Of a DNA stretch of 64,000 nucleotides, positions 5,395-21,813 are shown piece by piece. Source of the DNA: Nanobdellota archaeon. GTDB lineage: Archaea > Nanobdellota > Nanobdellia > Pacearchaeales > GW2011-AR1. Both the position numbers and the translations under genes were made by a program. The notes below the pieces were generated by a model. That model was not told where the DNA came from and ran no database searches. It saw nothing but the letters and a program-made list of their open reading frames with translations. How positions within the stretch are numbered: the stretch's first letter is position 1; each line of letters starts with the position of its first letter. Where the stretch lies: assembly GCA_018817905.1 (NCBI GenBank), contig JAHISS010000087.1, forward strand, positions 985-64,984. The letters run 5' to 3'.

Positions 5395-5396
5395 CG

Positions 5397-7312: not shown

Positions 7313-7380
7313 GATAGTCGTCTGGTTTATGAGATAATCATTTGGTGCTGGTGGTGGAACATATTTTTATTCAAGATAAT
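7313..7380 (+). repeat. dispersed intergenic repeat, copy A (about 70 nt)
   Basis: GTCGTCTGGTTTATGAGATAATCAT (7317-7341) is identical over 25 nt to 33951-33975. The following TATTTTTATTCAAGATAAT parallels TATTTTTGTTTAAGATAAAT in the other copy. Confidence 0.8.
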
Positions 7381-7772
7381 TATTTCCCAGAAACCAAAAT
7401 TTCCCCGCCGGCTTTTTTAACTTTGTCAATTGCCGAACTTGAAGCTGCGGACGCTTTTATTGTCAGCTTTTCCTTTACTTCGCCAAGTCCGAGAATCTTG
7501 TAACCCTTGAGTTCGATTTCTTTTTTACCTTTGAACTTTTCCACCAGGTCTCTCAAGTTTATTGTTTTCAGTTTTTTAGAGGGTTCTTTTCTCAAAGTTT
7601 TGTCTTTTCCAAAAGGATATTTGATTAAATTCTTTTTCTGGTCTGCTCGTTTTCCAGTTCCTGCTTTTCCAACTCCTCCCCTGTTTCCAGAACCTCTGGC
7701 TTTTTTCTTAAATCCTCTTGCAGCTGTGTGCGAACCGCGATGCCTTGTGTTTTTCTTTCTTTTTTTATTCAT
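7380..7772 (-). CDS. rpl15: 50S ribosomal protein uL15
   Basis: 130 aa. MNKKRKKNTRHRGSHTAARGFKKKARGSGNRGGVGKAGTGKR is the uL15 N-terminal signature. Last gene of the cluster. Confidence 0.92.
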   Translation of the reverse strand: MNKKRKKNTRHRGSHTAARGFKKKARGSGNRGGVGKAGTGKRADQKKNLIKYPFGKDKTLRKEPSKKLKTINLRDLVEKFKGKKEIELKGYKILGLGEVKEKLTIKASAASSSAIDKVKKAGGEILVSGK

Positions 7773-7947
7773 CTTCTTCCTCTGGCTGCATTGCTAAAAC
7801 ATTTTCAGCTTCTTTTTTTTCAATCATATCTTCTGGAACTTTAGCAAAACTTTCAATTGCCTGGCATTCCTCGCATTCTTGCGGAGGATACTGGCCGTAT
7901 TCGACGTTTCCGCATTCGCATTCCCACATGAAACCGTCTTTTGACAT
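7765..7947 (-). CDS. small zinc-ribbon protein (60 aa) inserted between uL30 and uL15 (insert 13)
   Basis: WECECGNVEYGQYPPQECEECQ gives a CxC...CxxC knuckle pair, followed by an acidic tail. Start overlaps the uL30 stop (1 nt) and the end overlaps the uL15 start (8 nt). Confidence 0.6.
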   Translation of the reverse strand: MSKDGFMWECECGNVEYGQYPPQECEECQAIESFAKVPEDMIEKKEAENVLAMQPEEEDE

Positions 7948-8369
7948 TACAACATCCTCCTAACCAAATCATTTATTTTCTCTTTGTTGTCTCCGAGAAC
8001 TGCCTTGCTGCTTGTTCCGAAATGTTTCTTTGAGTCTATTCCTCCTCTTGGCGGATGCAGCCTGAAAAAAGATTTTAAGCCTAAATCGTTCAATGATTTT
8101 TTGGCTAATCCTTCAACAATTTTCTCAGCGCTGATTTTATCTCCAGCTTTAATCGGTTGGCCTCTTTCCTTTATTAGTTGAACAAGAGTTTCTTTGTCTA
8201 TTGTTCCGTATGCGACATAGCTCCTTATTTTTTTTAAGAGTTTCAGATTTTCTTTAGTTGGCGCAAGAAGAACTGCAGAATACTTTCTTCTAAGTTTAAT
8301 TCTGAACAGGGTTTCTGTTACTTCCTTTGGAATTTCTACTTGGCCTGATATTCTTATTGTTAAAATCAT
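7947..8369 (-). CDS. rpl30: 50S ribosomal protein uL30
   Basis: 140 aa. ILTIRISGQV..TLFRIKLRRKYSAVL and FRLHPPRGG are archaeal uL30 hallmarks. Confidence 0.92.
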   Translation of the reverse strand: MILTIRISGQVEIPKEVTETLFRIKLRRKYSAVLLAPTKENLKLLKKIRSYVAYGTIDKETLVQLIKERGQPIKAGDKISAEKIVEGLAKKSLNDLGLKSFFRLHPPRGGIDSKKHFGTSSKAVLGDNKEKINDLVRRML

Positions 8370-9187
8370 TATGTCCTCATCTTTGTTGTTTTTTCAAGAG
8401 CATTGACGCATGCTTTTGCTAAATTGAAAGTTGTTTTTGTTTGTCCCTGCGTTTTTGTGTAGGCGTCTTTGATTCCTGCGAGTTTAAGGATTTTTTTGCA
8501 TTCGTCTCCTGTGACCAAGCCGGTTCCGCGAGGCGCTGGCCAGAGAGTAATTTTTACACTGCCTGATTTTCCCTGAACTTTGAACGGAACTGTGTGGGGA
8601 ATGCTGTCTTCTTTTTCATCTTCTGGAGATTCAAAACCAAGGTTAATTTTTATGAGGTTTAGTTTTGAGTTCCTAACTGCTTTTTCCCTTGCTGGCAGGG
8701 TTTCGCTTGCCTTGCCAAAACCAACTCCAACATGTCCTTTTTTATCTCCAGCAACTGCCATTGCAGAAAATGAAACAACATTTCCCTCCTGGGTTTTCTT
8801 TTGCGTTTGCCTCCACGCTCTTCTCTTGCCTCCGCCAAATTTTCCCTTTGCCTGACCAATTAAAATCAGGTCTGTCTCAATATTCAAAAGCGAATCAACA
8901 ATTTCTGATTCTAAAATCTTTTTTCCTTTTTCTAAAATCTTGTCAATGTCTTTTTCTTTTTTTTCTTTTACTAATCTTCCAAGATTGGTTTTTGGAACCC
9001 ATGCAGCTAACAGCACCTTAGGATCTTCCCTCTGAAATCTCCCATCTCTCCGGCCGTATTGTTTTTTTGAATTTTCTGTTTTTTCTGGCTCTTCTGTTTT
9101 TTCTGTTTCTTTCTCTAACTTTACAACTTCTTCTGGTGTTGCTTCAACAAGATCTTTTGGTTCGTTTTTTGTTTCTTTTTCTGCCAT
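8369..9187 (-). CDS. rps5: 30S ribosomal protein uS5 with Lys/Glu-rich N-terminal extension
   Basis: 272 aa. Core GKRRAWRQTQKKTQEGNVVSFSAMAVAGDKKGHVGVGFGKA and WPAPRGTGLV. The first 45 aa or so are a KE-rich extension. Confidence 0.92.
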   Translation of the reverse strand: MAEKETKNEPKDLVEATPEEVVKLEKETEKTEEPEKTENSKKQYGRRDGRFQREDPKVLLAAWVPKTNLGRLVKEKKEKDIDKILEKGKKILESEIVDSLLNIETDLILIGQAKGKFGGGKRRAWRQTQKKTQEGNVVSFSAMAVAGDKKGHVGVGFGKASETLPAREKAVRNSKLNLIKINLGFESPEDEKEDSIPHTVPFKVQGKSGSVKITLWPAPRGTGLVTGDECKKILKLAGIKDAYTKTQGQTKTTFNLAKACVNALEKTTKMRT

Positions 9188-9188
9188 T

Positions 9189-9509
9189 TTATTTTCCGTG
9201 CCTCCTTAATACTGCGTCTCTTTCTGAATGTCCTTCATCCTTAGGGCCATAGCCCCTATCTCGATTCGGATGTAAAAACGTTACTTTTCCATTATGTATT
9301 GGGTAGGAAATAACATCAATTGCTTGAGTTCCAGGGACCCTTCTAAGAAATCTTGCTCTTTCCGAATGACTCCTATAATTTCCTTCATGTGTCTCACTAA
9401 AAAACAATTCCAATTCTGATCCTTGATCGGGCTGAACTAACACCCTATCTTCAGACACGAGGTTTCTTGCCTTTAACGTTTGGCTTGATTTTATTTCTAA
9501 AGTTGCCAT
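9189..9509 (-). CDS. hypothetical protein interleaved in r-protein operon (insert 12, 106 aa, uL18|uS5 junction)
   Basis: 1-nt spacers on both sides. Its own SD AAGGAGGT lies in the last uL18 codons. Its last codons AAGGAGGCACGGAAAATAA supply the SD for uS5. Arg 12 vs Lys 5. No family recognised. Confidence 0.65.
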   Translation of the reverse strand: MATLEIKSSQTLKARNLVSEDRVLVQPDQGSELELFFSETHEGNYRSHSERARFLRRVPGTQAIDVISYPIHNGKVTFLHPNRDRGYGPKDEGHSERDAVLRRHGK

Positions 9510-9510
9510 T

Positions 9511-9984
9511 TTATAACTTTTCCTTTACCTCCTTAAAGATACTTTTAAGCTTTTCGTTAGCTTCAATTCTTTCTGTTTTTGGCAAGGTGCTTTCTTTATG
9601 CGGGATTTTCAAACCAGCGTCTATTGCTCCTTTTACAAGTGCGTAGATTCTTGAACCGTGAATGTTTCTGTTCAGACCGAAATCTAAAATCGCTTCGTTG
9701 ACTTTTGTCTTTATGTTTTTTACTAGGAGGAATCCGGTTAAGTAAGCGGCTGGAAGAGATTTCAAACTTCCTGATTTTTCTTTTGGCCAACCTTTTTCAA
9801 GGAGTTCCTGCGAGCTCGCCTTTGCTACAACTTTGTCCTGAGCTATTTGCGATTCAACAATCTGAGCGATAATGTAATGATTTGTTTTTCTTACGACTAA
9901 GCGCGGTTTTTCTGACTTCAACATTGTAAATCTTGCTTTGTAGTCTGTTTTTGCTTGTTTTCGGCGACGTTTTAGAGTTTTCAC
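9511..9984 (-). CDS. rpl18: 50S ribosomal protein uL18
   Basis: 157 aa. RRRKQAKTDYKARFTMLKSEKPRLVVRKTNHYIIAQIV is the uL18 signature. Confidence 0.92.
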   Translation of the reverse strand: MKTLKRRRKQAKTDYKARFTMLKSEKPRLVVRKTNHYIIAQIVESQIAQDKVVAKASSQELLEKGWPKEKSGSLKSLPAAYLTGFLLVKNIKTKVNEAILDFGLNRNIHGSRIYALVKGAIDAGLKIPHKESTLPKTERIEANEKLKSIFKEVKEKL

Positions 9985-10397
9985 TTTTCTTCCTCCTGCA
10001 TTTCAGCTAACCTTTCTTTCATGTGAGCCAAACTTCTGAAGTCTGAGGCCCGGATTTCTTTCCGCAATTTGTAATAATCTTCCAGCGAAATTTTCTTTCT
10101 CTTCTTCAAGTTTGAAAGATAAGTTCTTAATTTTCTCGTCATAGTAACATAATCTTGTTTTCTTGTCTTCACTGTTTTCTTTACTGAACCAGCACGTCTT
10201 CTTGTTTTTCTTTTTTTGATTTTTCTCCGTCCCTTTTTTTCCTCTATGAAAATCGCGCCAGATTCTTTCAAATCTTTCATGTCTTGTTTTGTTATTGCTT
10301 CTTTTAATTCTGCCAAGCGCGCGGTGTTGAAAGAGATTCTGTTCTTTCCTGTCTTTAACGCCCTTGCAGCTAACTCTTTTTTCTTTTCAAGTTTCAT
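9981..10397 (-). CDS. rpl19e: 50S ribosomal protein eL19
   Basis: 138 aa. KKELAARALKTGKNRISF...ITKQDMKDLKESGAIFIEEKKGRRK is typical eL19. Confidence 0.92.
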   Translation of the reverse strand: MKLEKKKELAARALKTGKNRISFNTARLAELKEAITKQDMKDLKESGAIFIEEKKGRRKIKKRKTRRRAGSVKKTVKTRKQDYVTMTRKLRTYLSNLKKRKKISLEDYYKLRKEIRASDFRSLAHMKERLAEMQEEEK

Positions 10398-10696
10398 GCT
10401 GTCCCCCGATGTTGTTCGACGAATTCTGAAACTGTCTTAAATTCAGGATGTGTTTCAGGAATTCTGCTCGTTGAAGTAAGGGATGGTTCTAAAACATCTA
10501 AGCCCGATAAATTATAAACACTTCTTAAAAATGCTAACTGACCCTCCACTGGGACTGGTTTTGGATCAATTATTTCTACAACCGTTCCCTTGGTTTTATA
10601 CACTAATCCTTTTGGGATCCTTTGACAAAAAACTTTTTCTCCAGGGTGATAAGATCCTCTAACTTTCAGTTCCCTTGGTCTTGTTTGCGTTGTCAT
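10394..10696 (-). CDS. hypothetical protein interleaved in r-protein operon (insert 11, 100 aa, eL32|eL19 junction)
   Basis: ATGA overlaps with the eL32 stop and the eL19 start. Begins MTTQT. Ends ..ACAGCATGA. No family recognised. Confidence 0.65.
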   Translation of the reverse strand: MTTQTRPRELKVRGSYHPGEKVFCQRIPKGLVYKTKGTVVEIIDPKPVPVEGQLAFLRSVYNLSGLDVLEPSLTSTSRIPETHPEFKTVSEFVEQHRGTA

Positions 10697-11043
10697 TTCT
10701 TCTCCCCCTTAACATTTAAAATTTTTATTTTCTTTTCAGTTGCTTCTTTTATAAGCTCCAACTTTTTCTTTGCTCCGACTTTTGCGAGAATTGCTCCCTG
10801 GTTTTTTCCCAAATCGTTTAGTTCTTTTCTGTTGTGGACTAAAACAACTTGGAGATTTTGGATTTTTCCTGCTTGTTTTTTTGGTTTTTTGTATCCAACT
10901 GAAACTGTTTTTGCATGACCATGCATGTTTAGCCTCATCTTACTGTCGCGGCCCTTTGGTCTTCGCCATTTTTGCAGTTTCTTTCTTCGCTTTCCGATTC
11001 TTGAATGTCTGTCTGCTTCCTGCCTGATGAATTTTTTTTTCAT
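10693..11043 (-). CDS. rpl32e: 50S ribosomal protein eL32
   Basis: 116 aa. FIRQEADRHSRIGKRRKKLQKWRRPKGRDSKMR is the eL32 signature. Confidence 0.92.
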   Translation of the reverse strand: MKKKFIRQEADRHSRIGKRRKKLQKWRRPKGRDSKMRLNMHGHAKTVSVGYKKPKKQAGKIQNLQVVLVHNRKELNDLGKNQGAILAKVGAKKKLELIKEATEKKIKILNVKGEKK

Positions 11044-11585
11044 TATAATCCCCTCCCTGGTTTTGAAACCAAGTGAATACCGTCTTGGAAAATTCTTCGG
11101 TCCCTGCCTCGAACCTTGGTAGCTTTTTCAATATTTGCCATTGTTTTTCCTGCAGCTTCTCGGTCATTAGAAGAAATAGTTACCTTCTGCCCCTTAATTT
11201 GAACTTCGACATTTGGAAAAATTTTTGCATGTCTTGGAGTTTTCTCCCCTAAAAAATTGTTTATTGCGAGTTGATTTCCTTCGACTTTCAAAGTCATCGG
11301 AAAATGAACATTCACTGCCTCTAACTCGTAAACAAACTTCTCTCCTAAACCTCTAAAAAGATTTTTGATGTGCGCGATTTGCGACTTGATGATTTTGTAT
11401 TGGTTTTTGTTTCCTTTTTTACAACTGATGACAATTTCGTTTCCCTGAAGTTGTATTTCTATCTGCGGAATGTTCATATCTCTTGAAATTGAATCAGAAC
11501 CCTTTGTGCAAGTTAGTTTTTTATTTTCATAAGTGCAAGAAATGCCTTCGGGTATTTCAACTTTTTCTAGGATTTGGTGTTTCAT
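11043..11585 (-). CDS. rpl6: 50S ribosomal protein uL6
   Basis: 180 aa. Two-domain uL6 pattern: VEIPEGIS..., HFPMTLKVEGNQLAINNFLGEK, RGRDRRIFQDGI. Confidence 0.92.
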   Translation of the reverse strand: MKHQILEKVEIPEGISCTYENKKLTCTKGSDSISRDMNIPQIEIQLQGNEIVISCKKGNKNQYKIIKSQIAHIKNLFRGLGEKFVYELEAVNVHFPMTLKVEGNQLAINNFLGEKTPRHAKIFPNVEVQIKGQKVTISSNDREAAGKTMANIEKATKVRGRDRRIFQDGIHLVSKPGRGL

Positions 11586-11586
11586 C

Positions 11587-11952
11587 TTATGCTGCGCTCC
11601 TATCTTTCTTACAGGATAATTCTAAAACTGCTTGATAGGGTTTATAGAAACGTTCACGAACAATTTCAATTAATGGTTTGTAATAATCTGGAAAAACAGG
11701 TCTTTCTGTTTTTGGATTAATGCCATATTTTCTAAAATCTGATTGGGCCAAGGGCATGGCTTCAAAAGCTGTGTGATACTCTCTCATCAAAACGTTTGTT
11801 TTACCAGGGTTGCCAATTACCTGTTCTGCCCTGTCTAAATGTGTATGTATAAAATTTGCAACAACTAAAAATTTAGCCATGTCTCCGCTTATAGCCCGTT
11901 GTTCCCAAAGTTTTCCTATTGTGACAAGAGAAGGATTTAATTTTTTAGCCAT
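11587..11952 (-). CDS. hypothetical protein interleaved in r-protein operon (insert 10, 121 aa, uS8|uL6 junction)
   Basis: 1-nt spacers to the uS8 stop and the uL6 start. Ends AGCGCAGCATAA. No family recognised. Confidence 0.65.
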   Translation of the reverse strand: MAKKLNPSLVTIGKLWEQRAISGDMAKFLVVANFIHTHLDRAEQVIGNPGKTNVLMREYHTAFEAMPLAQSDFRKYGINPKTERPVFPDYYKPLIEIVRERFYKPYQAVLELSCKKDRSAA

Positions 11953-11953
11953 C

Positions 11954-12328
11954 TTAATAAAAATAAGCTATCAAGCTTCCTCCGATGTTTTTATCCTGGG
12001 CTGTTTGGTGAGTCATGAGTCCTTGCGATGTTGAAATGATTAAAAATCCGATGTTTTTTGCCGGCAGGTATCTCTTGACGTATTTTTCAATTTCGTCGAC
12101 TTTTACCATGAAGCGCGGCTTGATTGCGTTGCAGTTGTTTAATTTTCCAAGTTCAATCTTTAGGTTTGTTTTGTCGGTTTTGTAACTTTTTACATATCCT
12201 TTTAATTTCGCGATTGCTAAAACAGAACTGAGAAGTTTTGAATGTCTTTTTACTTCTACGATTTCCTTTCCAGCTCTTCGGATGTTCATCATCTGGTTTA
12301 GCGCGTCTGCTACTACATCTTGTGACAT
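11954..12328 (-). CDS. rps8: 30S ribosomal protein uS8
   Basis: 124 aa. DVVADALNQMMNIRRAGKEIVEV and GGSLIAYFY are the uS8 termini. Confidence 0.92.
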   Translation of the reverse strand: MSQDVVADALNQMMNIRRAGKEIVEVKRHSKLLSSVLAIAKLKGYVKSYKTDKTNLKIELGKLNNCNAIKPRFMVKVDEIEKYVKRYLPAKNIGFLIISTSQGLMTHQTAQDKNIGGSLIAYFY

Positions 12329-12329
12329 T

Positions 12330-12560
12330 TTAACTATATTTTTTGAAGCCGATTTCTACTGCGATTTCTCGGAAGCAGTGTCGGCAGATGTTTAGATTAT
12401 ACTGATTGAGGTGAGCGCCGAAGCGACCGCATCTTTCGCATTTTCGCGCGGCGATTCCGGTCTTTCTTTCCTTCGGCTTGCAGTGCTTTAGGAACTTTTT
12501 CATAATTTCTGGTTTGTCCTTCAATTGCTTTGTTATTTTTTTCCAATCTGATGCTGTCAT
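12330..12560 (-). CDS. rps14: 30S ribosomal protein uS14 (zinc type)
   Basis: 76 aa. CERCGRFGAHLNQYNLNICRHCFRE is the Zn-ribbon uS14 core. Has an N-terminal extension relative to typical archaeal uS14. Confidence 0.88.
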   Translation of the reverse strand: MTASDWKKITKQLKDKPEIMKKFLKHCKPKERKTGIAARKCERCGRFGAHLNQYNLNICRHCFREIAVEIGFKKYS

Positions 12561-12862
12561 ATTGTGTCTGCCTCCAAGATTTCCTTAAACCTTTCGAATA
12601 TTTCCATTTCTTTTTCTCCACGCAAACAGTCTGGGTGCATTGTATAAACACTATCATCTCCATTCCTACGCGATATTGTTGAGCCATCGAATAATAATTT
12701 AAAATGCGTGGTGCCGAAAACTTCGATTGATCCTTTGTTGTTGCCTGGTTTAATAAATTGATGATATGGGTATTCTCCATCAACATATTTGAATCTTTCT
12801 CCAGAAGGTCTGACTGGATACCATTCGCCCATTGCCAACTTTGGTTTTGTTTGTGTTGTCAT
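12557..12862 (-). CDS. hypothetical protein interleaved in r-protein operon (insert 9, 101 aa, second ORF at the uL5|uS14 junction)
   Basis: ATGA overlaps at both ends. Begins MTTQT. Last codons CTTGGAGGCAGACACAATATGA carry the SD for uS14. No family recognised. Confidence 0.65.
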   Translation of the reverse strand: MTTQTKPKLAMGEWYPVRPSGERFKYVDGEYPYHQFIKPGNNKGSIEVFGTTHFKLLFDGSTISRRNGDDSVYTMHPDCLRGEKEMEIFERFKEILEADTI

Positions 12863-13215
12863 ATTCTCCTTTGTTCACTCCTTTCAACCATGGCATACAA
12901 ATCTTGAAAGCCTATTGTTCCTTCTTCAATACCCTCACATGGACAGATTTTTCGGATGCTGAAATTACTCCCTTGATCCACTGCTGCCCAATATAGGCGA
13001 AGATATTTTTTGCGAAGTATCTTATCTGTTTGTGCGAATAGTGCTCTTGCCCCGTCTGTATCGGCCACGGTTCCAACATAGTTATATCTAACCCGCCTAT
13101 CTGGGGAAACTATTATATCTCCTTCATGTATAATGGTAATATCTATGAGGGGATTTGCTACTACTACCGCATGTTCACGATGAATTAATGGGGTTGCCGC
13201 TGTCATCTCACTCAA
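12859..13215 (-). CDS. hypothetical protein interleaved in r-protein operon (insert 8, 118 aa, first ORF at the uL5|uS14 junction)
   Basis: 8-nt overlap with the uL5 end and ATGA overlap with insert 9. AAAGGAGAATATGA supplies the SD for insert 9. Arg 11 vs Lys 4. Confidence 0.65.
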   Translation of the reverse strand: MSEMTAATPLIHREHAVVVANPLIDITIIHEGDIIVSPDRRVRYNYVGTVADTDGARALFAQTDKILRKKYLRLYWAAVDQGSNFSIRKICPCEGIEEGTIGFQDLYAMVERSEQRRI

Positions 13216-13744
13216 CCTCTGTCTCGAAGTTTTCTTCGAGGAATTTAATTATTTCTTCAGGGGAAATTTTTTGTTTTTCTGGGAGTTTTCCTCTTTTGAT
13301 TTTTCTTCTCTTAACTCTTACTCCTGCTCTGATAAAACATGCAGTTACATTTAAACCTCTAATTCCAATTTCTCTTTGATATTCTATCCCGGGAATTTCA
13401 ATGTATTCATGGATTCCAAAAGAAAACGAGTTTTCTGCGATTTGCTTTTCGTCGAGCTCGTTGTCAACTGCGCCTAAAAGTTTTTTCAGGATTTCAAAAG
13501 CATGTTTTCCACGCAATGTCACTGATGTTCCAAGAGGTAAGTGCGGCTTCACTCCAAAGTCAGGAATTCTCCGCTTTGGTCCTGCCTTCATGATTTGCGC
13601 TTTTTTTCCTGAAATCATTTCCAAAAGTTTCTGCGACTTTTCAAGATTCGGACCTGTTGCTCCACAGCTAAGAACAACTTTCTCAAGTTTTACTTCTCTC
13701 ATTGGATTTTCTTTTTTTTCCTGGATTTGGGTTTGGGTTGTCAT
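13208..13744 (-). CDS. rpl5: 50S ribosomal protein uL5
   Basis: 178 aa. NPMREVKLEKVVLSCG..., RRIPDFGVKPHLPLGTSVTLRG, GIHEYIEIPGIEY. N-terminal MTTQTQIQEKKE precedes the usual start; an alternative start is M15 at 13702. Confidence 0.92.
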   Translation of the reverse strand: MTTQTQIQEKKENPMREVKLEKVVLSCGATGPNLEKSQKLLEMISGKKAQIMKAGPKRRIPDFGVKPHLPLGTSVTLRGKHAFEILKKLLGAVDNELDEKQIAENSFSFGIHEYIEIPGIEYQREIGIRGLNVTACFIRAGVRVKRRKIKRGKLPEKQKISPEEIIKFLEENFETEVE

Positions 13745-14013
13745 CTTTGTCCTCCCGGACCTCTGAAATAAGCATTCGTAAATTGAATTAGTAAAATACT
13801 GTAAAGTCTCTCCATTGCATTAACTAAACCGAGATATGCCTCTTGATTCGGTGGCGATGCCAGGGTTCTTCTCATTTCTCCAAAACGTTGATTAATTCTG
13901 TCCCTTGCTGCGAAAAAACCTTTAATGTTATTTCCTTCTTCGGCATATCTTCTTTGTTCGCTTACATCTTTCAATACTTCTTCTGTGAAAGATGCGATTT
14001 TTGCTAAACTCAT
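13741..14013 (-). CDS. hypothetical protein interleaved in r-protein operon (insert 7, 90 aa, eS4|uL5 junction)
   Basis: ATGA overlaps with the eS4 stop and the uL5 start. Last codons GGTCCGGGAGGACAAAGATGA carry the SD for uL5. Arg 10 vs Lys 3. Confidence 0.65.
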   Translation of the reverse strand: MSLAKIASFTEEVLKDVSEQRRYAEEGNNIKGFFAARDRINQRFGEMRRTLASPPNQEAYLGLVNAMERLYSILLIQFTNAYFRGPGGQR

Positions 14014-14630
14014 AGCGCCACCACCTGCTGTCTTTCCAAAACAGTTTCTTTATCTTTGAGCTGTATCTTTGCCTTGCTTCCTTCGACAGAAATTATTTTT
14101 CCCTTGTTCCCAATATATTTTCCAGCAATTATGAAACAGTTCTTTGTTTTTTCCAAGGGAACGTGTTTTGTTATTTTTCCAGAAAAGTCGAGATAAACTG
14201 TGTCCTGCGTGTTTATTTTCCTGTCTTCTGAAAGAACGTTGGAACCGTCGTGCAAGTTCAATTGGGTTTTGTTTCCCTTTAATATTTTTTTGTCTATCAC
14301 TTTGCAGATTCTTTCCTTGTCTTTTGTTTTTTCAAATGTGAACTTTCCATTTGCCGTGAAAGTCAAAACATAAGATTCTCCTGCTTCGAAAACGTTGAAG
14401 AGCCGAATTGAATCTCTGTAATCTTTAATTTCTTTTCCGTTGAGTTTTAGCAATTTTTGTTTTATCATTTCTCTTACTTCTTTTGCTGTTGTCGCGAGGT
14501 TTAACATGTTCCGGACAGCTACGACGACGGGAACCGAGTTTTCCAAATCAACTAAAGACCTAGCTATGTATCTGGTTCCTTTTCTTTCTATTGGAATTTT
14601 TTTTGTTAGCTTAGCTCTTGTTTGGTACAT
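14010..14630 (-). CDS. rps4e: 30S ribosomal protein eS4
   Basis: 206 aa. KLTKKIPIERKGTRYIARS...VVVAVRNMLNLATTAKEVREMI is typical eS4. Confidence 0.92.
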   Translation of the reverse strand: MYQTRAKLTKKIPIERKGTRYIARSLVDLENSVPVVVAVRNMLNLATTAKEVREMIKQKLLKLNGKEIKDYRDSIRLFNVFEAGESYVLTFTANGKFTFEKTKDKERICKVIDKKILKGNKTQLNLHDGSNVLSEDRKINTQDTVYLDFSGKITKHVPLEKTKNCFIIAGKYIGNKGKIISVEGSKAKIQLKDKETVLERQQVVAL

Positions 14631-15021
14631 TTTTCTTTTCCTTTGATTTGTTTAAAGCAGATATTCTTTTTTTGTCTTCTAAGTTTAAAGTTTGAATCTG
14701 CAACGAACTTGGATGGAACCAGACGCTGACTTTTGTTCCGTCTTTTTTTGTCCGCTGGATGTTTTCCAAAGCAATTCTTGTTCTTTTCAAATCAATTGTG
14801 ATGACTTTTGCTTTTTTCTTCTTGAACGAACCGCGCATGACAAGCACTTCATCATTCTTCCTGATTGGAATGCTTTTCTTGCCGTGCTTTTTCCTTAATT
14901 CTTTTGAAAGCTGGGCGCTTAAAAACTTATGCTTTGTGTGAAGCGGCGCGTTAGCTAAGTATTTTCGCTGCTTGCGAGGCTGCTTCGAAGATTTCCATTG
15001 GGTTGAGAATTTGTTTTTCAT
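14611..15021 (-). CDS. rpl24: 50S ribosomal protein uL24
   Basis: 136 aa. SKQPRKQRKYLANAPLHTKHKFLSAQLSKELRKKHG..IPIRKNDEVLVMRGSFKKKKAKV (KOW motif). 20-nt overlap with the eS4 start. Confidence 0.92.
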   Translation of the reverse strand: MKNKFSTQWKSSKQPRKQRKYLANAPLHTKHKFLSAQLSKELRKKHGKKSIPIRKNDEVLVMRGSFKKKKAKVITIDLKRTRIALENIQRTKKDGTKVSVWFHPSSLQIQTLNLEDKKRISALNKSKEKKNVPNKS

Positions 15022-15022
15022 T

Positions 15023-15322
15023 TTATGCTGCAGTCCCGCTACTTCTAATGAAATGACTAACTACTATAAGTTGGATTTCCAAGGCATTTTGAAGGTGCCC
15101 GTTAATTTCCCTTAAATGATTAACATTTGAAACATCTATGTTTTCGACAATGGCTAAGTGTTCACCAATTCTCTCATTATAATACCTTGCTCCCACTGTA
15201 TTACCAGATATTATTGCAGTCGCTAATTCATCTACGTAGCGCTTAAGAGCTTGGCTGGACCTTTTAGCCACTAAATAATTCCTTCTTTCAGAATCCTGAC
15301 TTAATCTAATTGTTGTATTCAT
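15023..15322 (-). CDS. hypothetical protein interleaved in r-protein operon (insert 6, 99 aa, uL14|uL24 junction)
   Basis: Track ORF 15023-15385 trimmed to the ATG at 15322 (MNTTIRLS...), 1 nt after the uL14 stop. 1-nt spacer to the uL24 ATG. Ends ACTGCAGCATAA. Arg 9 vs Lys 2. Confidence 0.6.
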   Translation of the reverse strand: MNTTIRLSQDSERRNYLVAKRSSQALKRYVDELATAIISGNTVGARYYNERIGEHLAIVENIDVSNVNHLREINGHLQNALEIQLIVVSHFIRSSGTAA

Positions 15323-15323
15323 T

Positions 15324-15749
15324 TTACAAAACATACTGAGCAATCTTGGCGACAGATGGCCAACGCTCCTGAACCTCCCTTGCAACTGGACCTTTAATTT
15401 GAGTTCCTTTTGGATTGCCTTTGTCGTCTTTCATTAAGGCTACGGCGTTGTCTTCGAAGCAGACTCTCTCACCTGTTAGTCTCCGGTAAGGTTTCTTTTG
15501 GCGGATTACAACTGCATCAAACACTTGGCCTTTCATGTCCGGCTTTCCTTTTCTGACAGAGACTTTTACCCAGTCCGATATTTTAGCATACTGCTGTCTT
15601 TTCTTTGTTGTTTTTCCGCCTTTTACTCCTGTGATTCTGACAATTCTCGCGCCGCTGTTGTCTGAAGCAAGAACCTGACTGCCAATGTTTAAACCGCGCG
15701 TTGCTCTTGCACTAATCGCCTTTCCGAATATTTTTTTTGATTTTGTCAT
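15324..15749 (-). CDS. rpl14: 50S ribosomal protein uL14
   Basis: 141 aa. GLNIGSQVLASDNSGARIVRITGVKG...FEDNAVALM is the uL14 signature. Confidence 0.92.
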   Translation of the reverse strand: MTKSKKIFGKAISARATRGLNIGSQVLASDNSGARIVRITGVKGGKTTKKRQQYAKISDWVKVSVRKGKPDMKGQVFDAVVIRQKKPYRRLTGERVCFEDNAVALMKDDKGNPKGTQIKGPVAREVQERWPSVAKIAQYVL

Positions 15750-16057
15750 TATTCGATTTCCTCCAAAGCTTTCTTAATTAAAGGATAAAGCGGATGACGC
15801 CTGTTTGCCCAGTAATGATTGTGACTCTTCTGAACAGAAGAGAACGTTCCATTTGGAAAAAGGACAAAACTATAAACCGGAATACAGCCAATAGTGTGGA
15901 AATTCTCCGTGTCCACTACGATAAGACTCCCGTCTTCCATGCCTGCGTATCGTCCTTCTATCCCTGAAGCCTCTCCGATAACTACATTATCTCCAATCTT
16001 AGTGTTTCTCGCATCTTCTGCTGTTCTTACTAACAATGCGGGTCTTCGTGGACTCAT
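15749..16057 (-). CDS. hypothetical protein interleaved in r-protein operon (insert 5, 102 aa, uS17|uL14 junction); weak Rpp29-like motif
   Basis: ATGA overlap with the uS17 stop and TAATG overlap with the uL14 start. GCTTTGGAGGAAATCGAATAATG supplies the uL14 SD. KIGDNVVIGEASGIEGR...IPVYSFVLFPNG loosely recalls the Rpp29 Sm-like pattern (LIGxxVxV..GIEGxVVDET..IPK..xFxF). This assignment is not secure. Confidence 0.6.
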   Translation of the reverse strand: MSPRRPALLVRTAEDARNTKIGDNVVIGEASGIEGRYAGMEDGSLIVVDTENFHTIGCIPVYSFVLFPNGTFSSVQKSHNHYWANRRHPLYPLIKKALEEIE

Positions 16058-16398
16058 TCTCCCCCTCCCTCTTTTTTCCTAATCTTCTCAACAACAATGA
16101 AATGAATCATCTTGCTCAATGGCCTGCATTCCTGGACTTTGATTAAATCACCAATATGGATTTCATGGGCAAGTTCTTCTGGCAAACGGGCGTGGATTCT
16201 TGTTTTCTTTTTGAGAAAGCGCTCGTATTTTTTAATTTTAACTGTGCGCTCGAATTCTATGGCGACTCGGGTTGGGAATTTCCTTGTGACAACTCCTTGA
16301 AAAATCCTGCCGCGGGTTGAGACTTTAGTTCTGACTAAGTTTTCTGTTTTCTTTTTTGTGGATTTCTCTATCTGTTTTTTCTTTGACGTTTCTGTCAT
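16054..16398 (-). CDS. rps17: 30S ribosomal protein uS17
   Basis: 114 aa. GRIFQGVVTRKFPTRVAIEFERTVKIKKYERFLKKKTRIHA..IGDLIKVQECRPLSK is the uS17 OB-fold signature. Confidence 0.92.
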   Translation of the reverse strand: MTETSKKKQIEKSTKKKTENLVRTKVSTRGRIFQGVVTRKFPTRVAIEFERTVKIKKYERFLKKKTRIHARLPEELAHEIHIGDLIKVQECRPLSKMIHFIVVEKIRKKEGGGE

Positions 16399-16424
16399 TT
16401 TCTCTTTGCTTTGCGATGTGCGAG

Positions 16425-16721
16425 TTAATCGCTGATGGACTCTTCGGGAAAGCCTAGCTTCACAAGAATCGGCCGGAGCTTTTTCTTGTGGTCGCCTTGC
16501 AGTTCGATGACGCCGTTTTTAGACGTGCCGCCGCATGCCAGTTCTTCTTTCAGGCGTTTTCCTGTTGCCTTGATGTCCACGTGTTTGTCAAACCCCTCGA
16601 CAAGTGTTATTTTTTTTCCGTATCTCCTTGTCTCGGTGCGCACTTTTATGTGCTGTTCGCTTTTAGCGATTTCTTCAAACACATCGGTTTCTGTTGGTAA
16701 ACCGAATTCGTTTGAATCCAT
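16425..16721 (-). CDS. sui1: translation initiation factor aIF1 (SUI1)
   Basis: 98 aa. IKVRTETRRYGKKITLVEGF...LKEELACGGTSKNGVIELQGDHKKKL is the SUI1 signature. Confidence 0.9.
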   Translation of the reverse strand: MDSNEFGLPTETDVFEEIAKSEQHIKVRTETRRYGKKITLVEGFDKHVDIKATGKRLKEELACGGTSKNGVIELQGDHKKKLRPILVKLGFPEESISD

Positions 16722-16942
16722 TATTTCTTTTTCAACCCATCCTCTTTCAAGGATTTGTTGAATTTTTCTGATTTCATGAATGTATTTAATCGTGAAATTG
16801 CCCTTTTAATCTCTTTGGTTTTAGCATTTGTCTTGTTTGCAGCGACATTTGCTCTGACCAGTTCCATTTTCAAATCTTTTAACTTGCTATCTCTCTCCCT
16901 TGCTGTCATCTTTGCTATTTCTTTTGATTTTAGGATTGCCAT
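16721..16942 (-). CDS. rpl29: 50S ribosomal protein uL29
   Basis: 73 aa. ILKSKEIAKMTARERDSKLKDLKMELVRANVAANKTNAKTKEIKRAISRLNT is typical uL29. Confidence 0.9.
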   Translation of the reverse strand: MAILKSKEIAKMTARERDSKLKDLKMELVRANVAANKTNAKTKEIKRAISRLNTFMKSEKFNKSLKEDGLKKK

Positions 16943-16948
16943 TTTATG

Positions 16949-17254
16949 CTATTGAACCTCCCCAGGTATATTACTTCTCCTTCTTAGTTCAGTTAATTCT
17001 TGTTCTAACTCTCCTAATGAAGACATCAATTCTACTCTCATTTGACTGGGCGCTTTTTGTGATAAATGATCTGTGGGAATGCAGGGAAGTTCTTGGCTAA
17101 TGAATTGATACACCTCTACATCCAAACTTGCCAATTGGTCAAGGAGTCCTGAATATCCTGGCAAGCCAACAGTTTGAACACCTTGCACTCTCTTTGTAAG
17201 ACTCTGGGTTTGTTTATAGAGTTCTTCGTATACTTCTCGGCCTTGTGCAATCAT
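16949..17254 (-). CDS. hypothetical protein interleaved in r-protein operon (insert 4, 101 aa, uS3|uL29 junction)
   Basis: ATGA overlap with the uS3 stop. Last codons GGGGAGGTTCAATAG give the SD for uL29, 6 nt downstream. Gln/Leu/Glu-rich and helical-looking. Confidence 0.62.
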   Translation of the reverse strand: MIAQGREVYEELYKQTQSLTKRVQGVQTVGLPGYSGLLDQLASLDVEVYQFISQELPCIPTDHLSQKAPSQMRVELMSSLGELEQELTELRRRSNIPGEVQ

Positions 17255-17973
17255 TCTTTTTCCTCCTCAACTTTCTTAGGCGCTTTCTTTTTGACTGTCT
17301 TCTTATCTGTCTTTTTCTTAACTTCGGTTTCTTCTTGCTGGTTCATTTCTTCTAAAGTAACCTTTATTTTTTGTCTGAGAGCTTCATCAATTTTTATTTG
17401 GTCGTGAAGTTCTGCTTCTGGTCTGAGAATAGCGACTTTGACACCGACAACTCCGGCGATTGTTGTTGCCTGGCTTTGGGCCCTGTTGACTACTTTTGCG
17501 GTATCGCCGGTTTTTTTCAAATAACCCTGGGTGAATCTCCAGGTTCTGGCTCTGTCGCTTGGCAGTTTTCCTGACAAAACAATTTCTGTTCCTAAAGCTC
17601 CTGCTTTCATTATCTGTTGTAATGTTCTGTAAGCGATAACTTTGAATTTTAATGAGCCTCTTCTTTCAAGTAACAAAGCGATGTCATCTGCAACTAATTG
17701 CGCGTCAAGCACTGGCTGCGTAATTTCTACAATTTCAATGTGCGGATTGTCGAGGTTGAATCTTTTTTTAAGTATTCTTGTCAGCTCGTCTATTTTTTCG
17801 CCTTTCCTTCCAATTACTAATCCTGGACGCGAAGTGAAAACTTTTATTTTTTCTCCTACTGGCGTATACTCAATGCTGACGTCGCTGATTTTTCCCTTCC
17901 CCAAACTATTTTTGATGTAATCTCTTACTCTGAACTCATCTTTCTTAAACGCGACAAATCTTTTTTCTTCCAT
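17251..17973 (-). CDS. rps3: 30S ribosomal protein uS3 with Lys/Glu-rich C-terminal tail
   Basis: 240 aa. KH-domain region PGLVIGRKGEKIDELT and GALGTEIVLSGKLPSDRARTWRF. The last 40 aa or so are a KE-rich tail. Confidence 0.92.
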   Translation of the reverse strand: MEEKRFVAFKKDEFRVRDYIKNSLGKGKISDVSIEYTPVGEKIKVFTSRPGLVIGRKGEKIDELTRILKKRFNLDNPHIEIVEITQPVLDAQLVADDIALLLERRGSLKFKVIAYRTLQQIMKAGALGTEIVLSGKLPSDRARTWRFTQGYLKKTGDTAKVVNRAQSQATTIAGVVGVKVAILRPEAELHDQIKIDEALRQKIKVTLEEMNQQEETEVKKKTDKKTVKKKAPKKVEEEKE

Positions 17974-17974
17974 T

Positions 17975-18415
17975 TTATGCGAAAACCTCCCTTAGCACTC
18001 TTAAAGCGTTATCTCTTTTTTTCCAATCTGGGTTCGTTACTCTGAGATAAGACCTGCCGTGACCTTCATCAGTAAAATGTTCTACGGTGCAATCTCTCAC
18101 ATGATAAATAAGGGAGGTTGAATCATGATATGCGCTATGATCTGGACTTGTAATGGGGGCACTAAAGTCTGTATCGCCAAAGCAGAGTATAATCGGATTA
18201 TCAATTCTGCGTTGAGGACTGGCTAATTTGGCTAATGCATTTCCTAAGTTTGCATTAGCACTTGTCACAAATTCTAACATTTCATGCATTTCAGGAAAAT
18301 CCCCCGCATCAAAGATATATAAATCAAACTCGTCGTCTCTGGCTGAACCGATTTTCCATTCAAACCCCCCAATACGATTTTGTCCAATTAACTTTTGTTG
18401 TGTTGCTTTTGCCAT
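17975..18415 (-). CDS. hypothetical protein interleaved in r-protein operon (insert 3, 146 aa, uL22|uS3 junction)
   Basis: Start overlaps the uL22 stop (TAATG). Last codons GGGAGGTTTTCGCATAA supply the SD for uS3, 1 nt downstream. Asp/His-rich (DHSAYHDSTSLIYH, HFTDEGHG). No family recognised. Confidence 0.65.
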   Translation of the reverse strand: MAKATQQKLIGQNRIGGFEWKIGSARDDEFDLYIFDAGDFPEMHEMLEFVTSANANLGNALAKLASPQRRIDNPIILCFGDTDFSAPITSPDHSAYHDSTSLIYHVRDCTVEHFTDEGHGRSYLRVTNPDWKKRDNALRVLREVFA

Positions 18416-19029
18416 TATTCCTTTCCTCCTTGTTTCTTAGGAAATTCCTTTGCTTTTAGAATAATGTTTGTCCTCTTTGATAATGTGCCGCCGCGACGCA
18501 TTTGTCTTCGCGCCCAAGAAGCAGAGGCGATGGAAATTCGCGTGGTTTCAAGTTCAAGTCCGTTTGTTATCGCGTTGCCTTTCAAAGCTTTCAAAAGATT
18601 AATAAAATATCCTGATGCTTTAATCGGGTATCTGCCTCGCTCCATGCTCCCTTTTCTGTGCGGCGTTTCTCCCCTGAACGGAACTGCCTGCTTAAACTTG
18701 GAAACTTTCTCAACGTCAGAAATTGCCTGGTCTATTTTTTTGTTTTTGATAAATCTGCAAAGATACACTGAATGTTTTTTCGAAATCGGCAATCCTGCGC
18801 CTCTGGCAATTGCTTCTTCTTTCTTAACTTTAGGAATTTCTTTCTTTTTTTCTTCCTTCTTCTCTGACTTTTCTTCAACTTTATCTTCCAATTTTTCTTC
18901 AGCTGTTTCTTTTTTTTCTTGCCTCATCTTTTCTTCTATTTCTTTGGTTTTTTCTTTGTCGACTGGCAACGGCTTTGCTTCTATCTTTTTCTTTTTTTCT
19001 TCTGCTGGTTGTTTATTTTCTTCTTTCAT
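18415..19029 (-). CDS. rpl22: 50S ribosomal protein uL22 with a ~75-aa Lys/Glu-rich N-terminal extension
   Basis: 204 aa. Core ARGAGLPISKKHSVYLCRFIKNKKIDQAISDVE...PFRGETPHRKG..GRYPIKA. Confidence 0.9.
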   Translation of the reverse strand: MKEENKQPAEEKKKKIEAKPLPVDKEKTKEIEEKMRQEKKETAEEKLEDKVEEKSEKKEEKKKEIPKVKKEEAIARGAGLPISKKHSVYLCRFIKNKKIDQAISDVEKVSKFKQAVPFRGETPHRKGSMERGRYPIKASGYFINLLKALKGNAITNGLELETTRISIASASWARRQMRRGGTLSKRTNIILKAKEFPKKQGGKE

Positions 19030-19030
19030 T

Positions 19031-19447
19031 TTATTTCTTCATTGCTCTCGATGATTTAGTTGCTCCGATTCCTGCGCTGCCGTGGTTTACTCTTGTTCGC
19101 GTTGGTGCGAATTCTCCCAACCGGTGTCCAATCATTTCAAAAGTTATTAGAACTTCTTGGAAATTTTTTCCGTTGTGAACGCCGATTGTCAAACCAACAA
19201 GTTTGGGAACTATGACTATGTCTCTTAGATGTGTCCTGATTTTTTTGCCTTTTGCAACTTTTCTATCGCATCTTTTTATGAATTTTTCAATTGAATCAAA
19301 AGTTCTTAAGACAGTTCTCCTGCTGCGTGAAGGAAGGAACTTGGCTATCTCTCTTGCATCTAGGGTTTTTAATTCTTCTATGGGCCTGCCTCTGTAAATT
19401 TGTTCTCTTCGCTTTACTTTTTCTTTTTCTTTCTTTTTGTGTGCCAT
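19031..19447 (-). CDS. rps19: 30S ribosomal protein uS19
   Basis: Track ORF trimmed to MAHKKKEKEK (ATG at 19447), 1 nt after the uL2 stop. Core GLTIGVHNGKNFQEVLITFEMIGHRLGEFAPTR. Confidence 0.9.
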   Translation of the reverse strand: MAHKKKEKEKVKRREQIYRGRPIEELKTLDAREIAKFLPSRSRRTVLRTFDSIEKFIKRCDRKVAKGKKIRTHLRDIVIVPKLVGLTIGVHNGKNFQEVLITFEMIGHRLGEFAPTRTRVNHGSAGIGATKSSRAMKK

Positions 19448-19448
19448 T

Positions 19449-20150: not shown

Positions 20151-20151
20151 T

Positions 20152-20499
20152 TTATTCTCTTCTTCTAAGATTTACTTCTACCATGTCATCAAACAACTCC
20201 TTGTATCTTACATCACTTTGGTCTAAGGTGATATATCTACCACCAAGAGTTGTAACTATTCCATTCTTCCCAAATCTAAGCCCATTTTCAGACACGATAA
20301 ATAAATAAATGGAATCTCTTGTGCGTGGGAAAGCAAACGAGAAGTCTCCTTCTTCTGAACCTCGATATTGGGCTAGTGTTCCCCCAGCAGACAAGCCATA
20401 GCCGTCTATTCTTACTACTTTTTTAACCGCCCGATGCAGCTCATCTAAACTATTTACTTGTGTCTCTATATCTTCTATATCCCTTGCTTCTTGTGCCAT
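20152..20499 (-). CDS. hypothetical protein interleaved in r-protein operon (insert 2, 115 aa, uL23|uL2 junction)
   Basis: Start overlaps the uL23 stop (TAATG). 1-nt spacer to the uL2 ATG. Arg 12 vs Lys 4. No family recognised. Confidence 0.65.
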   Translation of the reverse strand: MAQEARDIEDIETQVNSLDELHRAVKKVVRIDGYGLSAGGTLAQYRGSEEGDFSFAFPRTRDSIYLFIVSENGLRFGKNGIVTTLGGRYITLDQSDVRYKELFDDMVEVNLRRRE

Positions 20500-21520: not shown

Positions 21521-21524
21521 TTTG

Positions 21525-21812: not shown

Positions 21813-21813
21813 T

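Follow-up and report, generated by a model that had tools for sequence, protein, structure and literature searches.

Short, mostly ORFan cassettes at the junctions of a Nanobdellota ribosomal-protein operon encode Shine-Dalgarno sites in their tails and appear to turn over rapidly

The window analysed here is a stretch of 64,000 nucleotides (nt) from a Nanobdellota archaeon (contig JAHISS010000087.1 of assembly GCA_018817905.1), a DPANN member akin to Pacearchaeota and Woesearchaeota. On its minus strand, at positions 7380..22755, it encodes a ribosomal-protein (r-protein) super-operon of the archaeal S10-spc type, as defined by the list of open reading frames (ORFs), Pfam matches and tblastn comparison with 80 related loci. 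Twelve extra ORFs of 90–146 amino acids (aa), hereafter inserts, lie on the same strand as the operon and are interleaved at 11 of its cistron boundaries. We propose, with a probability of roughly 0.7, that these inserts are promoterless, mostly ORFan cassettes that turn over fast at the operon junctions and encode Shine-Dalgarno (SD) sites in their tails, and that they are not locked-in residents. An original prediction, made from the letters of the window, had noticed the same SDs and concluded that the inserts were wired into the translational-coupling chain of the operon, that they had resided there for long, and that they would be hard to lose. Operons commonly place the SD of a gene inside the tail of the preceding one, as textbooks describe. 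The S10-spc array, for its part, is among the most conserved gene orders of cellular life and is normally closed to within-operon insertions.

Operon layout and inserts

The operon starts with uL3, uL4, uL23, uL2, uS19, uL22, uS3, uL29, aIF1/SUI1, uS17, uL14 and uL24, and continues after uL24 with eS4, uL5, uS14, uS8, uL6, eL32, eL19, uL18, uS5, uL30, a zinc-ribbon ORF and uL15. Four starts were corrected, namely those of insert 6 (ATG at 15322, not TTG at 15385), insert 8 (ATG at 13206), uL4 (21520) and uS19 (19447). With these starts, the boundary spacing from uL3 to uL15 is −20 to +6 nt everywhere save between SUI1 and uS17 (26 nt), and ATGA, TAATG and TAAnATG are the commonest boundary forms. 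At all insert junctions of the window the spacing is −4 to +6 nt. The inserts are as follows.

Insert 1: 21525..21812, minus strand; 95 aa, uL3/uL4; homolog P0015 (41% identity), the sole one among 1.84e9 representative sequences
Insert 2: 20152..20499, minus strand; 115 aa, uL23/uL2; the search found its own 50% cluster only; possible remote member of family A (see below)
Insert 3: 17975..18415, minus strand; 146 aa, uL22/uS3
Insert 4: 16949..17254, minus strand; 101 aa, uS3/uL29; ORFan
Insert 5: 15749..16057, minus strand; 102 aa, uS17/uL14; ORFan
Insert 6: 15023..15322, minus strand; 99 aa from the corrected ATG, uL14/uL24; no family match
Insert 7: 13741..14013, minus strand; 90 aa, eS4/uL5; ORFan in the global search
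Insert 8: 12859..13206, minus strand; 115 aa from the corrected ATG, first of two in uL5/uS14; matches P0013 (115 aa)
Insert 9: 12557..12862, minus strand; 101 aa, second of two in uL5/uS14; ORFan
Insert 10: 11587..11952, minus strand; 121 aa, uS8/uL6; cassette with signs of recent transfer
Insert 11: 10394..10696, minus strand; 100 aa, eL32/eL19
Insert 12: 9189..9509, minus strand; 106 aa, uL18/uS5; homolog P0014 (49% identity) after uL18 in relative L084

Shine-Dalgarno sites in the window

Each of the 36 cistron starts was scored by the duplex formed between the 24 nt upstream and AUCACCUCCU, a canonical 16S rRNA tail that may not be the host's own, and a free energy (dG) of −8 kcal/mol or below was taken as a strong SD. 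Rfam and tRNA scans of the window detected no rRNA or tRNA gene. Strong SDs preceded 18 of the 36 starts; among all 24-nt windows of the operon the share was 4.8% (binomial p=6.7e-15). They were found at 7/11 starts of r-protein genes (r-genes) behind an insert (uS3, uL29, uL14, uL5, uS14, eL19 and uS5), with GGAGG-type motifs 5–14 nt upstream, and at 8/11 insert starts behind an r-gene; only 2/12 junctions between two r-genes had one. On the coding strand of the operon, 13 of the 23 GGAGG pentamers fall within 24 nt upstream of a start, so that such strings are not equally frequent at random positions. The descriptive part of the original prediction is thus borne out: all the 3′ strings that it quoted for the insert ends are present on the minus strand, and the uL18 and uS17 ends that it quoted as SDs for the following inserts are present too, the uL18 motif at a long spacing (18 nt). 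The sites in the insert tails are the following.

17985..17990, minus strand: GGAGGT in the terminal codons of insert 3 (R-E-V), spaced 11 nt from the uS3 ATG
16956..16961, minus strand: GGAGGT in the terminal codons of insert 4, spaced 13 nt from the uL29 ATG
15760..15764, minus strand: GGAGG in the terminal codons of insert 5, spaced 10 nt from the uL14 ATG
13751..13755, minus strand: GGAGG in the terminal codons of insert 7, spaced 6 nt from the uL5 ATG, with an ATGA overlap
12866..12870, minus strand: SD-like AGGAG near the end of insert 8, spaced 3 nt from the insert 9 ATG, with a second AAGGAG further upstream
12571..12575, minus strand: GGAGG in the terminal codons of insert 9, spaced 10 nt from the uS14 ATG
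11597..11601, minus strand: weak SD AGGAG near the end of insert 10, spaced 11 nt from the uL6 ATG
10403..10407, minus strand: G-run GGGGG(A) near the end of insert 11, spaced 5 nt from the eL19 ATG, dG −8.6, kept in relative L085
9201..9207, minus strand: AAGGAGG in the tail of insert 12 (R-R codons), 13 nt before the uS5 ATG; AGGAGG kept in L084

The sites in r-gene tails that precede inserts are the following.

21824..21829, minus strand: GGAGGT in the uL3 tail, for insert 1; the uL3 C-terminus FEFLEV also occurs in insert-free relatives
18425..18431, minus strand: AAGGAGG in the uL22 tail, for insert 3
17262..17267, minus strand: AGGAGG in the uS3 tail, for insert 4
16064..16068, minus strand: GGAGG in the uS17 tail, for insert 5
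14022..14026, minus strand: SD-like AGGTG(GTG) in the eS4 tail, for insert 7
10702..10705, minus strand: SD-like GGGGGAG in the eL32 tail, for insert 11
9528..9534, minus strand: AAGGAGG in the uL18 tail, for insert 12, at an unusually long spacing of 18 nt from its ATG

Shine-Dalgarno sites in related operons

Related loci were collected by a one-genome-per-species scan with uL14, which yielded 80 operons from metagenome-assembled genomes (MAGs) of Pacearchaeota, Woesearchaeota and Nanoarchaeota; counts for the clade cover 81 operons. GGAGG is the most enriched 5-mer at positions −22 to −3 of starts (19.4-fold over internal coding sequence), and its spacing in the relatives peaks at 5–13 nt. 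This enrichment provides indirect evidence for a canonical anti-SD in the clade. The share of strong SDs is 28% at junctions between two r-genes, 43% where an insert follows an r-gene and 45% where an r-gene follows an insert, against a background of about 4% at internal positions of inserts or r-genes. In every junction class, spacings of −4, +1 and −1 prevail.

When the same downstream gene was compared, an SD was more frequent after an insert than at the native junction (Mantel-Haenszel odds ratio (OR) 1.96, p=1.4e-5), and r-gene tails before an insert showed a similar excess over native ones (OR 2.1, p=4e-5). The share rose from 9% at the native junction to 52% after an insert for uL24, from 2% to 45% for uS8, from 14% to 57% for uS14 and from 13% to 41% for uL2, and the native uS8 to uL6 junction had an SD in 0/67 cases. 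This contrast is greatest where the conserved C-terminus of the upstream r-protein cannot encode GGAGG. SDs would therefore be commoner at insert tails than at native junctions because insert tails are free of the constraints on an r-protein C-terminus.

SDs are also conserved between insert orthologs that are only 40–49% identical. The insert 3 family ends in L-x-E-V-F-A, where E-V is encoded by GAGGT; this holds for the window and for an ortholog of 43% identity that occupies the same junction, and the SD of the L081 ortholog is conserved as GAGGAGGT. A further member of this family, P0018 (L090, positions 93-503), lies outside any r-protein operon and is convergent with an aEF-2 gene; there, GAGGAAAT replaces the SD codons. 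This single case is consistent with an SD that persists only in front of a downstream gene. An R-R pair encoded by AGGAGG is kept in the L084 ortholog of insert 12, and one cassette family found at three different junctions retains a C-terminal L-G-E encoded by TTAGGAGA.

Gain and loss of inserts

The r-proteins of the window match 61–80 of the 80 related operons at 60–88% identity (tblastn); the same search with the 12 inserts gave no match in these operons. Gaps of 150–700 nt occur at r-gene junctions in many relatives in a patchy pattern. The close relatives L001, L012 and L041 have none of the insert ORFs of the window (L001 has one small ORF after uS19), and L002 and L085 share several occupied junctions with the window and have unrelated ORFs there. 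On a neighbour-joining tree of concatenated r-proteins, parsimony required at least 188 changes of insert presence or absence over 22 junctions in the 81 operons, which is nearly one change per occupied tip. L019 and L022, whose r-proteins have a median identity of 91%, differ at 7 of 12 occupied junctions, and their inserts at shared sites are 16–69% identical.

Filled and empty sites have the same upstream r-protein C-termini and, where present, the same SDs, and the ATG of the insert takes the position that the ATG of the displaced r-gene has in empty sites. The uL23 tail ...ATATAATGG, for instance, precedes uL2 in L001 and insert 2 in the window. Because the native upstream tail is kept and the insert starts at the native start position, a deletion from start codon to start codon would rebuild the native junction. 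The expectation that clean deletion of an insert would remove the ribosome-binding site of an essential gene is accordingly not supported: the native C-terminus and, where one exists, its SD are kept at filled sites. Nor do the inserts seem hard to lose, given close relatives in which the same sites are empty or hold other ORFs. Long-term residence, the age that had been read from the SDs, runs against these insert-free relatives, the gain/loss count and the differences between L019 and L022, and also against the finding that inserts 10 and 11 are younger than their flanks (see below).

Direct repeats around the two start codons of an insert site average 6.1 nt, compared with 5.0 nt in control junction pairs, and repeats of at least 9 nt occur in 14% versus 4.7% of control pairs (p=1e-8). 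An 11-nt direct repeat, ATAAAATGGCA, lies on either side of insert 12. The signal is modest; repeats at start codons could aid precise gain and loss.

Junctions differ in occupancy. Hot spots are uL23>uL2 (33 of 74 operons) and uL14>uL24 (33 of 80). The uL29>SUI1 (16721) and SUI1>uS17 (16399-16424) junctions are never occupied by an insert in the 75–77 relatives scored. SUI1>uS17 is the sole junction with a true spacer (about 20–26 nt) and has no SD; this spacer may hold an internal transcription start.

Recent transfer and movement of cassettes

Insert 10 shares 96% nucleotide identity with its counterpart in L085 (about 14 nt differences), with 0.04 synonymous (dS) and 0.04 nonsynonymous (dN) substitutions per site, compared with a dS of 1.3–2.3 in its flanks. 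Insert 11 is 73% identical to its L085 counterpart in amino acids and 84% in nucleotides, with a dS of 0.24 and a dN/dS ratio (omega) of 0.66, and its flanks are saturated. Over the operon, the r-proteins of the window and L085 are 59–89% identical (flank dS 1.1–2.3), and for both inserts the identity drops to the flank level within 45–90 nt beyond the ORF ends. L088, whose flanks are as distant as those of L085, has only a 38–42% homolog of insert 10 at the same junction. Therefore, the similarity to L085 reflects recent transfer and not slow evolution of the insert. The dS values of inserts 10 and 11, which are far below those of their flanks, indicate that both were recently transferred horizontally. 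A similar pattern was found for a Nudix cassette common to L006 and L038 (dS 0.24 versus 1.78 in the flanks); the adjacent exonuclease cassette of the same pair shows no such low dS.

Cassettes clearly shift between junctions. The profile of insert 7, which lies between eS4 and uL5, matched inserts at another junction, uS14/uS8, in L024 and L002 (E=6e-5 and 9e-6).

Cassettes for a Nudix hydrolase and a DEDDh (RNase_T-like) exonuclease are neighbours at uL4/uL23, and each also occurs alone elsewhere, at uS17/uL14 and eL32/eL19 (loci L006 456-1471, L038 5200-6236, L077 and L047). The recent exchange between L006 and L038 involved the Nudix gene only. Larger insertions were seen in the uL24>eS4 gap of L010, L019 and L022, which spans 1.9–3 kb and contains apparently fragmented RVT_1 reverse-transcriptase ORFs together with a conserved 250-aa protein. 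These may represent a group II intron or a retron-like element inside the r-protein operon.

Coding nature and identity of the inserts

The inserts are genuine coding genes, and the phenomenon is clade-wide. About 260 inserts with a median length of 106 aa were gathered from the relatives, up to 16 in one operon. In 93% of 180 gaps of 150–450 nt, a stop-free frame covers at least 95% of the gap, compared with 0.9% after shuffling; almost always, a single ORF on the sense strand fills the gap, with ends −4, −1 or +1 nt from the neighbouring genes. The codon-usage score of inserts is +0.20 bit per codon versus +0.26 for ordinary genes, and the annotated frame scores best in 99.6% of cases.

By exact look-up, the inserts of the window are annotated as hypothetical proteins in Nanoarchaeota MAGs. 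Each occurs on 3–5 contigs from several sources (NCBI, JGI/IMG, Logan and ENA), with three NCBI accessions each, and they are therefore not an assembly artefact. Ten of the 12 were looked up in clusters at 90% identity; nine are singletons, and the cluster of insert 10 has three members. Searches of the 12 inserts against Pfam, PHROG, PADLOC and NCBIfam gave no match. An exhaustive HMMER search with 11 inserts (insert 6 omitted) among the 1.84e9 representatives revealed no relative beyond the own 50% cluster for seven of them, and one to four relatives for each of the remaining four. Insert 10 had no match in a scan of viral contigs, its sole match in a metagenome scan was an already known contig, and its AlphaFold2 model (predicted local distance difference test score 61, predicted template modelling score 0.42) was too poor for a structure search. 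The insert 3 family shows conserved motifs and residues.

In composition the inserts differ from r-proteins, with 3–9% lysine versus 12–24% and a net charge of −6 to +6 versus +7 to +37, and GC content at third codon positions (GC3) is lower in inserts (0.24–0.37) than in r-genes (0.30–0.53). About 90% of 150 inserts of relatives lack a Pfam domain. Those with a domain include RNase_T-type exonucleases (6), NUDIX (2), MazG, a nucleotidyltransferase, reverse-transcriptase fragments and DUFs.

That the inserts of the window are paralogs of one another was ruled out at the BLAST level. Their C-termini show an unusual preference for alanine (...GCAGCATAA/GCATGA), which ends 16% of inserts and is outside the eight commonest C-terminal residues of r-genes (each at least 4%); the 5-mers GCAGC and GCATA are enriched 5–9-fold. 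This pattern is seen in five of the 12 window inserts (around 17975, 16943-16951, 15023, 11587 and 10394) and also among the 197 insert to r-gene junctions of relatives.

Interpretation and alternative explanations

We suggest the following course of events. An insert that begins at the start position of the displaced r-gene would take over the native upstream junction together with its SD, and the end of the insert would form a new junction of the ATGA, TAATG or TAAnATG kind, in which the last codons usually encode a GGAGG-type SD 5–14 nt before the next start. The SD would lie inside the tail of the upstream ORF because there is no intergenic space. Initiation on the downstream gene would rely on this intragenic SD and on termination-reinitiation or local re-initiation, as is ordinary for tightly packed cistrons; judged from the junction sequences, the SDs of insert tails are thus probably used, with translation running through the inserts and re-initiating. 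In some cassette families the SD-encoding C-terminus would move along with the cassette. Over the clade, cassettes would come and go, give way to unrelated ORFs at the same junction, shift between junctions and pass horizontally between lineages, probably by recombination through conserved r-gene ends or junction microhomology, and the survivors would be those insertions that keep the essential downstream gene expressed through an open frame, a tight junction and an SD. We infer that the SD in the tail reflects a selection filter on insertions and is not evidence of their age.

Several observations weigh against this proposal or limit it. In the window, the uL2, uL24 and uL4 starts (after inserts 2, 6 and 1) have no SD, junctions that the original prediction had not listed, and the uL6 start (after insert 10) has only the weak AGGAG. 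The predicted probability of being unpaired at −20 to +3 is 0.55–0.60, compared with 0.50 in internal coding sequence. Initiation regions that are modelled as slightly more open argue against a strict coupling enforced by structure and would fit de novo initiation as well as reinitiation. The wiring of the inserts into a coupling chain, as originally predicted, therefore agrees with the junction grammar (overlaps or 1-nt spacing, SD in the tail) and does not extend to sequestered starts. The evidence for recent transfer comes from few pairs with low substitution counts, and the omega of insert 10, about 1, is imprecise owing to its small number of substitutions. Position-specific profiles of the 197 insert to r-gene junctions yielded only SD and stop/start signals, with no recombinase or attachment site found.

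The remaining points concern persistence. Homologs of inserts 3, 10 and 12 (38–49% identity) occupy the same junctions in lineages whose flanking r-proteins are 57–74% identical, and some cassettes are therefore old; to this extent long residence holds, while as a general claim it fails on turnover and transfer. Iterative profiles also recovered family A, which comprises at least 15 inserts at uL23/uL2, uL2/uS19, uL3/uL4 and uL6/eL32, with several paralogs per operon. Sub-threshold matches to its profile are enriched for uL23/uL2 inserts, including insert 2, whose E-value of 0.008 compares with 0.011 for a reversed-sequence control, so that this remote homology is unproven. A word-indexed search with the family A alignment profile returned its own members only. 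Many uL23/uL2 inserts may be extremely diverged orthologs, and some apparent replacements may likewise be products of very fast divergence, by which the parsimony count of gains and losses may be inflated.

Members of family A are about 110 aa long and fast-evolving, with the motifs L..L..GD.V,.Y.G and a C-terminal ..ML...GL, and have no Pfam match. Paralogs within one operon are seen in L018 (3689-4060, 5670-5987 and 6689-7024), and also in L019, L024, L047 and others.

A bolder version of the cassette proposal is possible and is put forward tentatively. In DPANN archaea of the Pacearchaeota/Woesearchaeota type, the boundaries of the r-protein operon would be docking sites for mobile units of a new kind, promoterless ORF-sized "operon hitch-hiker" cassettes with their own 3′ SD, which would move between junctions and species without a recognisable recombinase or attachment site and would be kept open mainly because a stop or frameshift starves the essential downstream gene. 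If true, the cassettes would live as selfish elements that exploit translational coupling, within the most conserved gene array known.

Alternatively, the SDs in insert tails could act as insulation, in that a strong and accessible SD allows de novo initiation on the r-gene and so offsets an unreliable flow of ribosomes through a foreign ORF. The roughly twofold frequency of SDs after inserts relative to the native junctions of the same genes would be expected, as would the lower GC3 of inserts and the predicted openness of initiation regions, and intragenic SDs do support de novo initiation in some organisms (Huber et al. 2019, Nat Commun, PMC6728339). However, the geometry of insert junctions (ATGA, TAATG, 1-nt spacing) is the same as that of native coupled junctions, and in the archaea tested so far, the SDs of overlapping pairs serve reinitiation (PMC6728339). 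We consider insulation a serious though less probable alternative; it and coupling are inseparable by sequence alone and are not mutually exclusive.

It is similarly less probable that the inserts are selected accessory proteins (ribosome-associated, for nucleotide house-cleaning or for host interaction) that use the operon for strong constitutive co-expression and are neither selfish nor neutral. The Nudix and DEDDh exonuclease families are indeed under purifying selection (omega 0.13–0.3), and the conserved residues of the insert 3 family and the host-like codon usage point in the same direction. Against this stand the omega values of insert 10 (imprecise, as stated) and insert 11, those of 0.6–0.9 in several same-junction pairs, the extremely patchy distribution with about 90% ORFans, a composition unlike that of r-proteins (low lysine, net charge around 0), and the lack of any match in the defence and phage libraries.

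The reading of the inserts as ancient residents welded into the coupling chain, which would be addictive since their loss removes an essential ribosome-binding site, is largely refuted by the comparative data, and we regard it as very unlikely. SDs of essential genes do lie within insert ORFs, the insert 3, 10 and 12 families do persist at the same junction in distant relatives, and an internal deletion or frameshift would plausibly harm downstream translation, which may explain the 93% of gaps that are open. Close relatives, however, lack these ORFs or have unrelated ones at the same sites, the gain/loss events are numerous, even L019 and L022 differ at most of their occupied junctions, inserts 10 and 11 are far younger than their flanks, and precise excision would restore a working junction with the native C-terminus, SD and start position. 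In addition, the tails upstream of occupied sites carry SDs at least as often as those at empty sites. Finally, that the GGAGG strings are by-products of composition or chance and the inserts non-coding spacers that happen to be open, as a purine-rich, T-poor coding strand with fewer stop codons might allow, is already refuted by the counts: SD-strength windows are about ten times rarer internally (4% versus 45% at junctions), GGAGG pentamers concentrate upstream of starts, shuffled gaps are seldom open, the coding signal is frame-specific, and the SDs are conserved in orthologs.

The inserts turn over faster than the r-proteins diverge, and some have clearly been exchanged between lineages. 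They offer a natural system for how foreign genes gain expression in genomes with few promoters, and a test case for whether translational coupling keeps an otherwise unconstrained ORF open. For practical work, the synteny and length of r-protein operons are unsafe assumptions in the binning or annotation of DPANN genomes.

Other features of the locus

A 60-aa ORF at 7765-7947 (minus strand), between uL30 and uL15, has a zinc-ribbon pattern CxC...CxxC (MSKDGFMWECECGN...), and AGGAGG lies in the uL30 tail before its start. Unlike the 12 inserts, it is conserved between these two genes in about 20 relatives, and no Pfam family matches it.

Upstream of uL3 the operon is bordered by a MarR/DUF7343 regulator. 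On the downstream side within the window lies an IS200-like Y1 transposase, not an integrase. This gene (6428-6913, operon strand) belongs to a 2.4-kb insertion at 4971-7379 that parts uL15 from secY (3573-4970) and also contains ORFans at 5119-5394 and 5397-6263 on the opposite strand. In relative L088, secY follows uL15 directly.

Three cistrons, uL5 (13744), insert 9 (12862) and insert 11 (10696), begin with MTTQT (ATGACAAC-N-CAA). A shared origin of these starts was first assumed and then rejected, since the ATGA overlap alone dictates ATG-AC and with it at least the first two codons; the identity beyond ATG-AC could be due to chance or to a common junction origin.

Comparison with known systems

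We found no description of such inserts in DPANN r-protein operons, within an incomplete coverage of the literature. Like free-standing homing endonuclease genes and phage "morons", the inserts are extra genes wedged among conserved, syntenic essential genes and are patchy in close relatives, and an element at the same site can be more similar than its flanks (inserts 10 and 11). Unlike homing endonuclease genes, the 12 window inserts have no nuclease domain (Pfam, PHROG, NCBIfam and PADLOC), and no homing nuclease domain (LAGLIDADG, GIY-YIG, HNH or others) was found in 150 inserts of relatives. Raised identity in the flanks, which would be the trace of any co-conversion, extends 45–90 nt at most. 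The inserts further differ from phage homing genes and morons by having no promoter or terminator of their own and by their place in a cellular ribosomal operon, not a phage.

The archaeal extras of the S10-spc operon (eS4, eL32, eL19 and aIF1/SUI1), all four of which are present in the window, are also non-universal genes among universal r-genes in one transcription unit. These extras, however, are conserved across Archaea and are ribosomal or translation proteins, whereas the inserts occur in only a few close relatives, are not basic and are missing from sister lineages. The inserts of the window have no homolog in the 80 related operons and lack a basic, r-protein-like composition (charge −6 to +6).

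The resemblance to integron gene cassettes lies in promoterless single-ORF units of diverse, mostly unassigned function, which share one orientation and an upstream promoter and undergo rapid gain, loss and horizontal exchange. In contrast to integron cassettes, the inserts have no attC-like element, although inverted repeats were not explicitly scanned, and their ends lie −4 to +6 nt from the next start. At the locus, within the window, no integrase or attI was found, and the inserts are interleaved singly among essential genes of an archaeal host and are not arrayed.

The SD wiring fits the known class of gene pairs coupled through an intragenic SD. An SD in the 3′ end of the upstream gene is the documented norm at overlapping pairs in archaea and bacteria, and the degree to which it supports termination-reinitiation there varies (Huber et al. 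2019, Nat Commun, PMC6728339). As in those pairs, the cistrons studied here are co-directional, have −4/−1 overlaps or spacers of a few nt and embed the SD in the 3′ end of the upstream ORF, an arrangement that is common in archaeal r-protein operons (PMC6728339). Both the stop/start geometry of this class and tail SDs above background at about 5–13 nt were found. Two differences stand out: the upstream ORFs here are foreign ORFans with fast turnover and not functional partners, and inserts carry SDs oftener than the native partner genes do (OR about 2). The SD pattern itself is ordinary; the hypervariable cassette system in which it is found is, as far as we can tell, the unusual part.

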